Positions 56,182 through 56,400 of a stretch of 64,000 bases of DNA are shown here, piece by piece (positions within the stretch are counted from its first letter, which is position 1; each line of letters starts with the position of its first letter). Made by a program: the position numbers and the translations under genes. The DNA comes from Escherichia coli (lineage in GTDB: Bacteria > Pseudomonadota > Gammaproteobacteria > Enterobacterales > Enterobacteriaceae), in assembly GCF_965641715.1 (NCBI RefSeq), contig NZ_OZ282453.1. The stretch is one strand, 5' to 3'. Below the pieces are notes generated by a model. That model was given only the letters and a program-made list of their open reading frames with translations, did not search any database and was not told the origin of the DNA.

Positions 56182-56400
56182 TGTTCATTCCACGGCCAAA
56201 AACAGAGAAAGGAAACGACAAAGGCCCAAAAGTTCGTTTTCAGCACCTGTCGTTTCCTTTCTTTTCAGGGGGTATTTTAAATAAAAACATTAAGTTACGG
56301 CGAAGAAGAACGGAAACGCCTTAAACCGGAAAATTTTCATAAATAGCGAAAACCCGCGCGCCTGACGCCCCGTAGCATGCTGGCTCACCGGAAAGGACCC
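56182..56400 (-). other. cos region (cosB/cosN/cosQ) with a variant cohesive-end sequence
   Basis: sequence upstream of Nu1 closely matches the reverse complement of the lambda left end (ggtattttaaataaaaacattaagtta..gaagaagaacggaaacgccttaaaccggaaaattttcataaatagcgaaaacccgcg) but the cosN 12-mer region reads cgcctgacgccc. Confidence 0.5.

Follow-up and report, generated by a model that had tools for sequence, protein, structure and literature searches.

The minus strand of positions 56182–56400 in a 64,000-nt stretch of Escherichia coli DNA (the whole stretch is hereafter called the window) was found, on comparison with lambda, to be a lambda-type cos site located immediately upstream of Nu1. 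For the 12-nt cohesive end, the predicted sequence is GGGCGTCAGGCG, which differs from the GGGCGGCGACCT of lambda at 5 of the 12 positions (bp 6, 8, 9, 10, and 12). Judging from the sequence, the site is probably a functional-type cos of a lambda-like prophage that has the packaging specificity of lambda and carries a natural, near-neutral cosN allele. GGGCGTCAGGCG adds a new allele to a site that is well described and known to vary, and the non-lambda sticky end here is a sign neither of a new packaging specificity nor of a broken prophage.

The DE3 record, in which the cos site is annotated, was used as the lambda reference and compared with the reverse complement of 56400..56182. The alignment was gapless from cosQ through the Nu1 ATG, and the following elements were located (bp are counted from the first cohesive-end base).

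56394..56400, minus strand: cosQ (GGGTCCT), extending from 30 to 24 bp upstream of the top-strand nick; signal for packaging termination; same sequence and position as in lambda
56373..56393, minus strand: cosQ–cosN spacer, of lambda length, with five substitutions (−14, −11, −10, −7, and −5)
Ending at 56371, minus strand: left nick flank, CTACG (TTACG in lambda)
56357..56372, minus strand: cosN nicking site, 16 bp (CG, GGGCGTCAGGCG, CG), aligned to the annotated lambda cos
56371/56370 (minus strand) and 56359/56358 (plus strand): predicted nicks, placed by homology
56370..56359, minus strand: predicted 12-nt 5' cohesive end, GGGCGTCAGGCG (GGGCGGCGACCT in lambda)
From 56358, minus strand: right flank, CGCGGGTTTTCGC, same as in lambda
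56331..56345, minus strand: I2-like IHF-site region, TATTTATGAAAATTT, same as in lambda; placed by analogy with the I2 annotated in phage 21 (M81255)
56306..56321, minus strand: cosB R3 (bp 50–65), the critical binding site of the small terminase subunit (Nu1), same as in lambda; limits from PMC9026076
56273..56297, minus strand: I1 IHF-site region, flanked by R3 and R2, bp 74 to 98 as in lambda; approximate extent, by homology to lambda and phage 21
56247..56262, plus strand: cosB R2, in the opposite orientation to R3 and R1, same as in lambda
56206..56221, minus strand: cosB R1, with C to T at the first base and the rest as in lambda
56181, minus strand: Nu1 ATG, same as in lambda

The order, architecture, and spacing of these elements are the same as in lambda cos, and cosQ, the CG flanks, bp 1–5, I2, R3, I1, and R2 are identical, whereas the window differs in five cohesive-end base pairs, five spacer base pairs, and the first base of R1. 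The T at the first base of R1 is also present in EC416 and in phage phiSTEC1575-Stx2k. There were 8 differences from lambda in the 178 positions of bp 13–190 and none over bp 13–70; those nearest to I1 (bp 71, 73, and 102) all lie outside it. The cosN-to-Nu1 interval contains no indels, and all spacings, including that from cosN to R3, equal those of lambda. The variable stretch amounts to a 26-bp island of ~38% divergence within DNA that is ~96% identical to lambda. Because the homology extends over ~220 bp at ~94% identity and adjoins a 99.4%-identical Nu1, chance resemblance is excluded. A lambda-like cos in the definition of Feiss has 12-base 5' cohesive ends related to those of lambda (PMC4669245), and the window has the accompanying features: cosQ at the lambda spacing, CG pairs at both nicks, a cosB of the order R3-I1-R2-R1 with R2 inverted, and adjoining Nu1/A-type terminase genes. 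Among the defining features examined, only the strict conservation of bp 6 is departed from. The initial annotation had been right to identify a cos site upstream of Nu1, with a flank near-identical to lambda (100% over bp 13–70, with cosQ identical) and a cohesive end that differs at several positions; it had allowed that its alignment by eye might be offset, and realignment to lambda revealed no offset and again gave a non-canonical cosN. Upstream of the window cosQ, the DNA is unrelated to that of lambda, with an MscS-like gene and a GH108/holin lysis cassette in place of Rz/bor. As a point of numbering, the nu1 start is at bp 190 from the first cohesive-end base in the DE3 record, and likewise in the window, against bp 191 in published lambda (PMC9026076). 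This implies a 1-nt difference between DE3 and the reference lambda downstream of R3, most likely between R2 and R1, which leaves the cosN–R3 spacing unaffected.

The genes that follow the site are also those of lambda.

55636..56181, minus strand: Nu1, small terminase subunit, 181 aa (Pfam Phage_Nu1, E = 9e-101; 99.4% identity to lambda)
53736..55661, minus strand: A, large terminase subunit and cosN-nicking endonuclease, 641 aa (99.4% identity to lambda)
53533–53739, minus strand: W
51935–53536, minus strand: B

The sole change in Nu1 is L132I, residues 1–131 being identical to those of lambda. The product of A (gpA) has four changes (D185E, S268A, P388S, and I459V), all conservative, and residues 505–520 are unchanged; this segment includes residues 509 and 515, at which Arens et al. 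1999 reportedly obtained suppressors of cosN mutations. The late operon lies on the minus strand. Nu1 through J, the 20 lambda morphogenetic genes, are all complete in length, with 86–100% amino acid identity. Truncated or missing terminase and head genes beside cos, a feature of decay in cryptic prophages, were not found in the window. The late region and cos look intact, which covers the prophage as far as 64000, where the window ends within the interval between the lysis genes and Q; the early region lies beyond this point.

The packaging specificity of lambda-like phages is determined by cosB and the small terminase subunit, and TerL is positioned by the TerS–cosB anchor rather than by strong recognition of the cosN sequence (PMC4669245, PMC9026076). 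The N15 cosN serves lambda TerL as efficiently as the lambda cosN does, and lambda and N15-hybrid terminases lack cosN specificity (PMC4669245). In the window, R3 (bp 50–65) and the DNA-binding domain of Nu1 are of the lambda type, which places the site in the lambda specificity group and not in those of 21 or N15; the cosB sequences of phage 21 and of the H10407 site are clearly different. The suggestion in the initial annotation that the prophage packages with a different cos specificity therefore has no basis: specificity resides in TerS–cosB, R3 and R2 are those of lambda, R1 is one base off, Nu1 and gpA carry one and four changes, respectively, and the spacing is the same. Furthermore, near-identical gpA proteins adjoin four different cosN alleles, with no changes from lambda beside GGGCGGCGACCT (lambda), one beside GGGCGGCAGGCG (SE11), two beside GGGCGGAAGGCG (H10407), and four beside GGGCGTCAGGCG in the window, the last allele being present in EC416 as well. 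In these sequences, enzyme and site do not co-vary.

Within the cohesive end, bp 1–5 (GGGCG) are as in lambda and bp 6 is T where lambda has G. The 12-mer GGGCGTCAGGCG occurs once in the 64-kb window, and in our own analysis, the allele has lost two of the symmetric base pairs of lambda, 3/10 and 6/7. Natural variants of cosN have been described in N15 and phiD326 (bp 9 and 12) and in Gifsy-1 (bp 8, 9, and 11) (PMC4669245), and the cohesive end of mEp213 and LLS is GGGCGGCGCGCT (PMC12315714); the Gifsy-1 cosN sequence was also compared directly. As in these phages, the substitutions of the window cluster in the cosB-side half, and cosQ and the nick flanks are kept. In contrast to them, the window has another set of substitutions, and its bp 6 is changed, outside the unconstrained zone of bp 7–12. 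Base pairs 7–12 commonly vary in nature without a measurable effect on cos cleavage, and engineered changes there likewise leave cleavage unaffected; the nick-flanking CG pairs, the left half of cosN, and cosQ, for which no natural variation is recorded, are under selection (PMC4669245).

Conservation was scanned in IMG/VR with cosQ and the I2 region as the only anchors and everything between them left free. This first scan is the only one of our IMG/VR scans that is unbiased for cosN; the pooled allele counts come from several targeted scans and are not frequencies. Among the matches listed, which comprised at least 74 distinct cos sequences, bp −4 to 5 and 13–15 were essentially invariant, with the nick-flanking CG pairs and bp 1–5 strictly so; bp 7–12 were conserved at 80–93%; and bp 6 was G in 97%, with A and T also occurring. 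The window site matches every invariant position, and the positions of its spacer substitutions were also variable in the same set. A separate scan for a bp 6 other than G returned 17 IMG/VR contigs, 15 of which had the window allele. The change from G to T at bp 6, at the center of the dyad, is the sole feature of the allele that falls outside the published pattern of variation. A survey of natural cosN variation was reportedly made by Vahanian et al. 2017; full-text literature searches for the allele strings, with that survey outside the comparison, returned only unrelated primers.

The allele recurs in other genomes. An 86-bp core was matched exactly in five porcine ETEC genomes, ETEC1730 being among the genomes matched, a 44-mer consisting of the cohesive end and the right flank in nine complete E. 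coli genomes, and a 22-mer across the cohesive end in 15 IMG/VR contigs. Its copies occur in at least five upstream contexts. The cosB types concerned are the lambda type, the phage 21 type (in a closely related allele), and a third type beside a divergent Nu1-family gene. A derived allele, GGGCGTCAGACG, was also found, and a single step (G6T) separates the window allele from the GGGCGGCAGGCG of the SE11 prophage, whereas two steps separate it from GGGCGGAAGGCG. The latter is present in the prophage of ETEC H10407 and in PhiR46_1 and YDC107_1, which were deposited as complete phage genomes, the status of the PhiR phages as viable phages being that given by the GenBank record alone. The SE11, H10407, PhiR46_1, and YDC107_1 alleles have bp 8–12 (AGGCG) and the right flank in common with the window, whereas those of SE11 and H10407 differ from it at bp 6 or bp 6–7 and the H10407 site has a cosB of the phage 21 type. 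The allele family GGGCGG[N]AGGCG was found in 72 IMG/VR contigs. The exact allele was not found in the INPHARED phage collection, nor were documented virion ends of such sequence. The 22-mer TACGGGGCGTCAGGCGCGCGGG had no match among GTDB genomes taken one per bacterial species, which is weak evidence of absence because the TACG left flank in the pattern misses CCACG-flanked sites such as that of EC416. The initial annotation had alternatively regarded the site as mutated; this reading gives way to the recurrence of the exact allele in independent contexts and to the position of four of the five changes in the tolerant bp 7–12 (PMC4669245).

In five of the nine complete genomes, the allele is carried by a clearly degraded prophage. 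In the ETEC1730 lineage, the same cos lies in a heavily deleted thrW prophage without A and W, whereas EC416 has a related prophage with the same cohesive end at the same chromosomal site as the window (between prfC and yjjG), annotated with integrase, repressor-like, replication-region, Q, and lysis genes and complete sets of head and tail genes. Hence, both intact-looking and decayed elements carry the allele. ETEC1730 had been considered as a proxy for the integrity of the window prophage and was dropped, as its prophage is a deleted derivative located elsewhere in the chromosome. In ETEC1730 itself (NZ_CP122832.1; locus L008, 4178–6181), truncated Nu1 and portal genes are joined by a deletion, and an ISL3-family element interrupts the region beside a methyltransferase.

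One alternative, which we regard as unlikely, is that cosN is weakened, in other words, that G6T, by itself or combined with the lost 3/10 and 6/7 symmetry, lowers top-strand nicking so that packaging is poor or absent. The predominance of G at bp 6 (97% of at least 74 distinct cos sequences, among the matches listed) is consistent with this, as is the selection on the left half of cosN, where the G2C mutation cuts yield ~10-fold (PMC4669245). The allele is, moreover, missing from the isolated phages in INPHARED and persists in the degraded prophages of the ETEC1730 lineage. However, the allele has intact terminase genes beside it across several unrelated contexts and three cosB types, which is hard to square with a dead site; bp 6 is A in other cos sites; and the strictly invariant bp 1–5 and CG flanks are intact.

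If the site is a functional-type cos with a near-neutral allele, as we favor, Nu1 dimers and IHF would assemble on R3-I1-R2-R1 of cosB, by homology to lambda, and this complex would place gpA ~47 bp away, where it would nick the two strands at the conserved CG steps with a 12-bp stagger. The nick positions, like the occurrence and efficiency of cleavage, are predicted here from the lambda system. The predicted cut would yield virion DNA with a 5' overhang of GGGCGTCAGGCG, and cosQ would direct the terminating cut at the next cos. Terminase recognition would be unaltered by the substitutions, and the packaging specificity would remain that of lambda. Because both ends of one chromosome derive from one duplex, they would stay complementary to each other. 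The window end has a G+C content of 10/12 and a predicted duplex dG of −18.7 kcal/mol, as against −19.0 kcal/mol for lambda, whereas a window end paired with a lambda end is predicted to form an out-of-register heterologous duplex of −9.3 kcal/mol; window-type ends should therefore not anneal with lambda-type ends. A 2-base mismatch between ends results in an ~4-fold lower viable yield (PMC4669245), and given this cost and the poor heterologous pairing, a chromosome with one lambda-allele and one window-allele end would probably fail to cyclize.

Cohesive-end alleles might be incompatibility types of lambda-type cos elements that share one terminase, with GGGCGTCAGGCG residing mainly in an island that targets the capsid gene and having moved into prophages by exchange at cos. 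If true, elements whose ends do not match would escape packaging, together with co-resident prophages, into chimeras that cannot cyclize. We consider this scheme decidedly unlikely. A related proposal, that the allele is maintained since its ends are incompatible with those of co-resident lambda-type elements and so block chimeric packaging, such as that of a prophage with a satellite, is very unlikely. Besides the predicted pairing energies and the cost of end mismatch, this proposal is in line with the number of lambda-like cos sites per E. coli genome (median 2, maximum 9), with strain 95-3322, in which an island in the capsid gene has the window allele and the host prophage cos 15 kb upstream has that of lambda, and with the 11 of 15 IMG/VR occurrences that lie in the same island context. 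However, the support comes from one co-resident pair examined, and the relaxed constraint on bp 7–12 together with recombination at cos would suffice, selection being unneeded.

It is extremely improbable that the large terminase subunit has co-adapted to a distinct nicking specificity and would not cut the cosN of lambda, or the reverse: five of the 12 positions are changed and two symmetric lambda pairs are lost, but gpA has only four conservative changes with residues 509 and 515 unchanged, gpA with one or two changes adjoins two other alleles, and neither lambda nor N15-hybrid terminases discriminate between cosN sequences (PMC4669245).

On the favored reading of a near-neutral natural allele, the variant in itself matters little. 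For annotators, the packaging signal looks intact, and the sticky end should be taken as a sign of neither decay nor new specificity. The virion ends of such phages cannot safely be assumed to be GGGCGGCGACCT, which concerns end-ligation, cosmid, and single-molecule tethering work and software that reorients genomes at cos. In addition, bp 6 joins bp 7–12 as a naturally variable position, and the apparently constrained part of cosN becomes slightly narrower.

The spacing on the cosQ side of cosN was different in some prophages. In the EC416, SE11, and H10407 cos sites, the distance from cosQ to the nick is 1 bp shorter than in lambda (GGGTCCTTCC...), and the left flank is CCACG rather than TTACG or CTACG; thus, the cosQ–cosN spacing too varies in nature. 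Records of ~46 kb, some of them N15-like (Ravinvirus, e.g., YDC107_1) or labeled "plasmid," combine a lambda-type cosB with GGGCGGAAGGCG, and this cohesive end in the Ravinvirus-classified or ~46 kb records departs from the published N15 cosN (bp 9 and 12).

The E. coli PICI cos sites (EcCICFT073 cos1 and related sites) have a lambda-like cosQ/cosN and a non-lambda cosB beside a TerS-like or Rpp gene (PMC6739421, PMC9026076). In contrast, the window cos is part of a full lambda-like prophage, in which cosB, Nu1, and A are those of lambda, and not of an island. The satellite-like islands that we found carry the exact cohesive end of the window and encode a Nu1-family TerS, and they are likened to the PICI cos by description. 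The example in E. coli 95-3322 (NZ_CP027461.1; locus L214, 13529–25276; related loci L133, L146, and L147) is ~10.5 kb long and interrupts E, the major capsid gene of a lambda-like prophage. Its genes encode an integrase, an HTH protein, an Icd-like protein, a primase, an SSB, an E-like capsid protein, and a D-like decoration protein, followed by an AlpA-like HTH protein, cos, a 183-aa Nu1-family TerS, and a DUF2971 protein. The island cos has the window allele, and the cos of the host prophage, 15.2 kb upstream, has the lambda allele. The TerS of the island (L146) has the N-terminal domain of lambda Nu1 and a diverged C-terminus.

The window prophage also has neighbors and cargo of its own. 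An intact 544-aa reverse transcriptase–TIR fusion gene (32043–33677, plus strand; Pfam RVT_1 and TIR_2) sits between prfC (29649–31262) and the tail-fiber end of the prophage; it is annotated as a TIR-domain anti-phage reverse transcriptase in related genomes and is fragmented in EC416. A 338-aa MscS-family mechanosensitive channel gene (56888–57904, minus strand) is carried as cargo in the AT-rich, non-lambda DNA that separates cos from the lysis cassette; it is present in ETEC1730 and absent from the EC416 relative. The non-lambda-like region upstream of cos (58413–62612, minus strand) encodes a GH108 endolysin with PG_binding_3, two holin-like ORFs, a TerB-like protein, and an N6/N4 DNA methyltransferase. 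Two tRNA genes are located at 61359–61435 (Arg-tct) and 61438–61513 (CAT anticodon; annotated as tRNA-Ile in relatives), with a possible third at 59767–59858.
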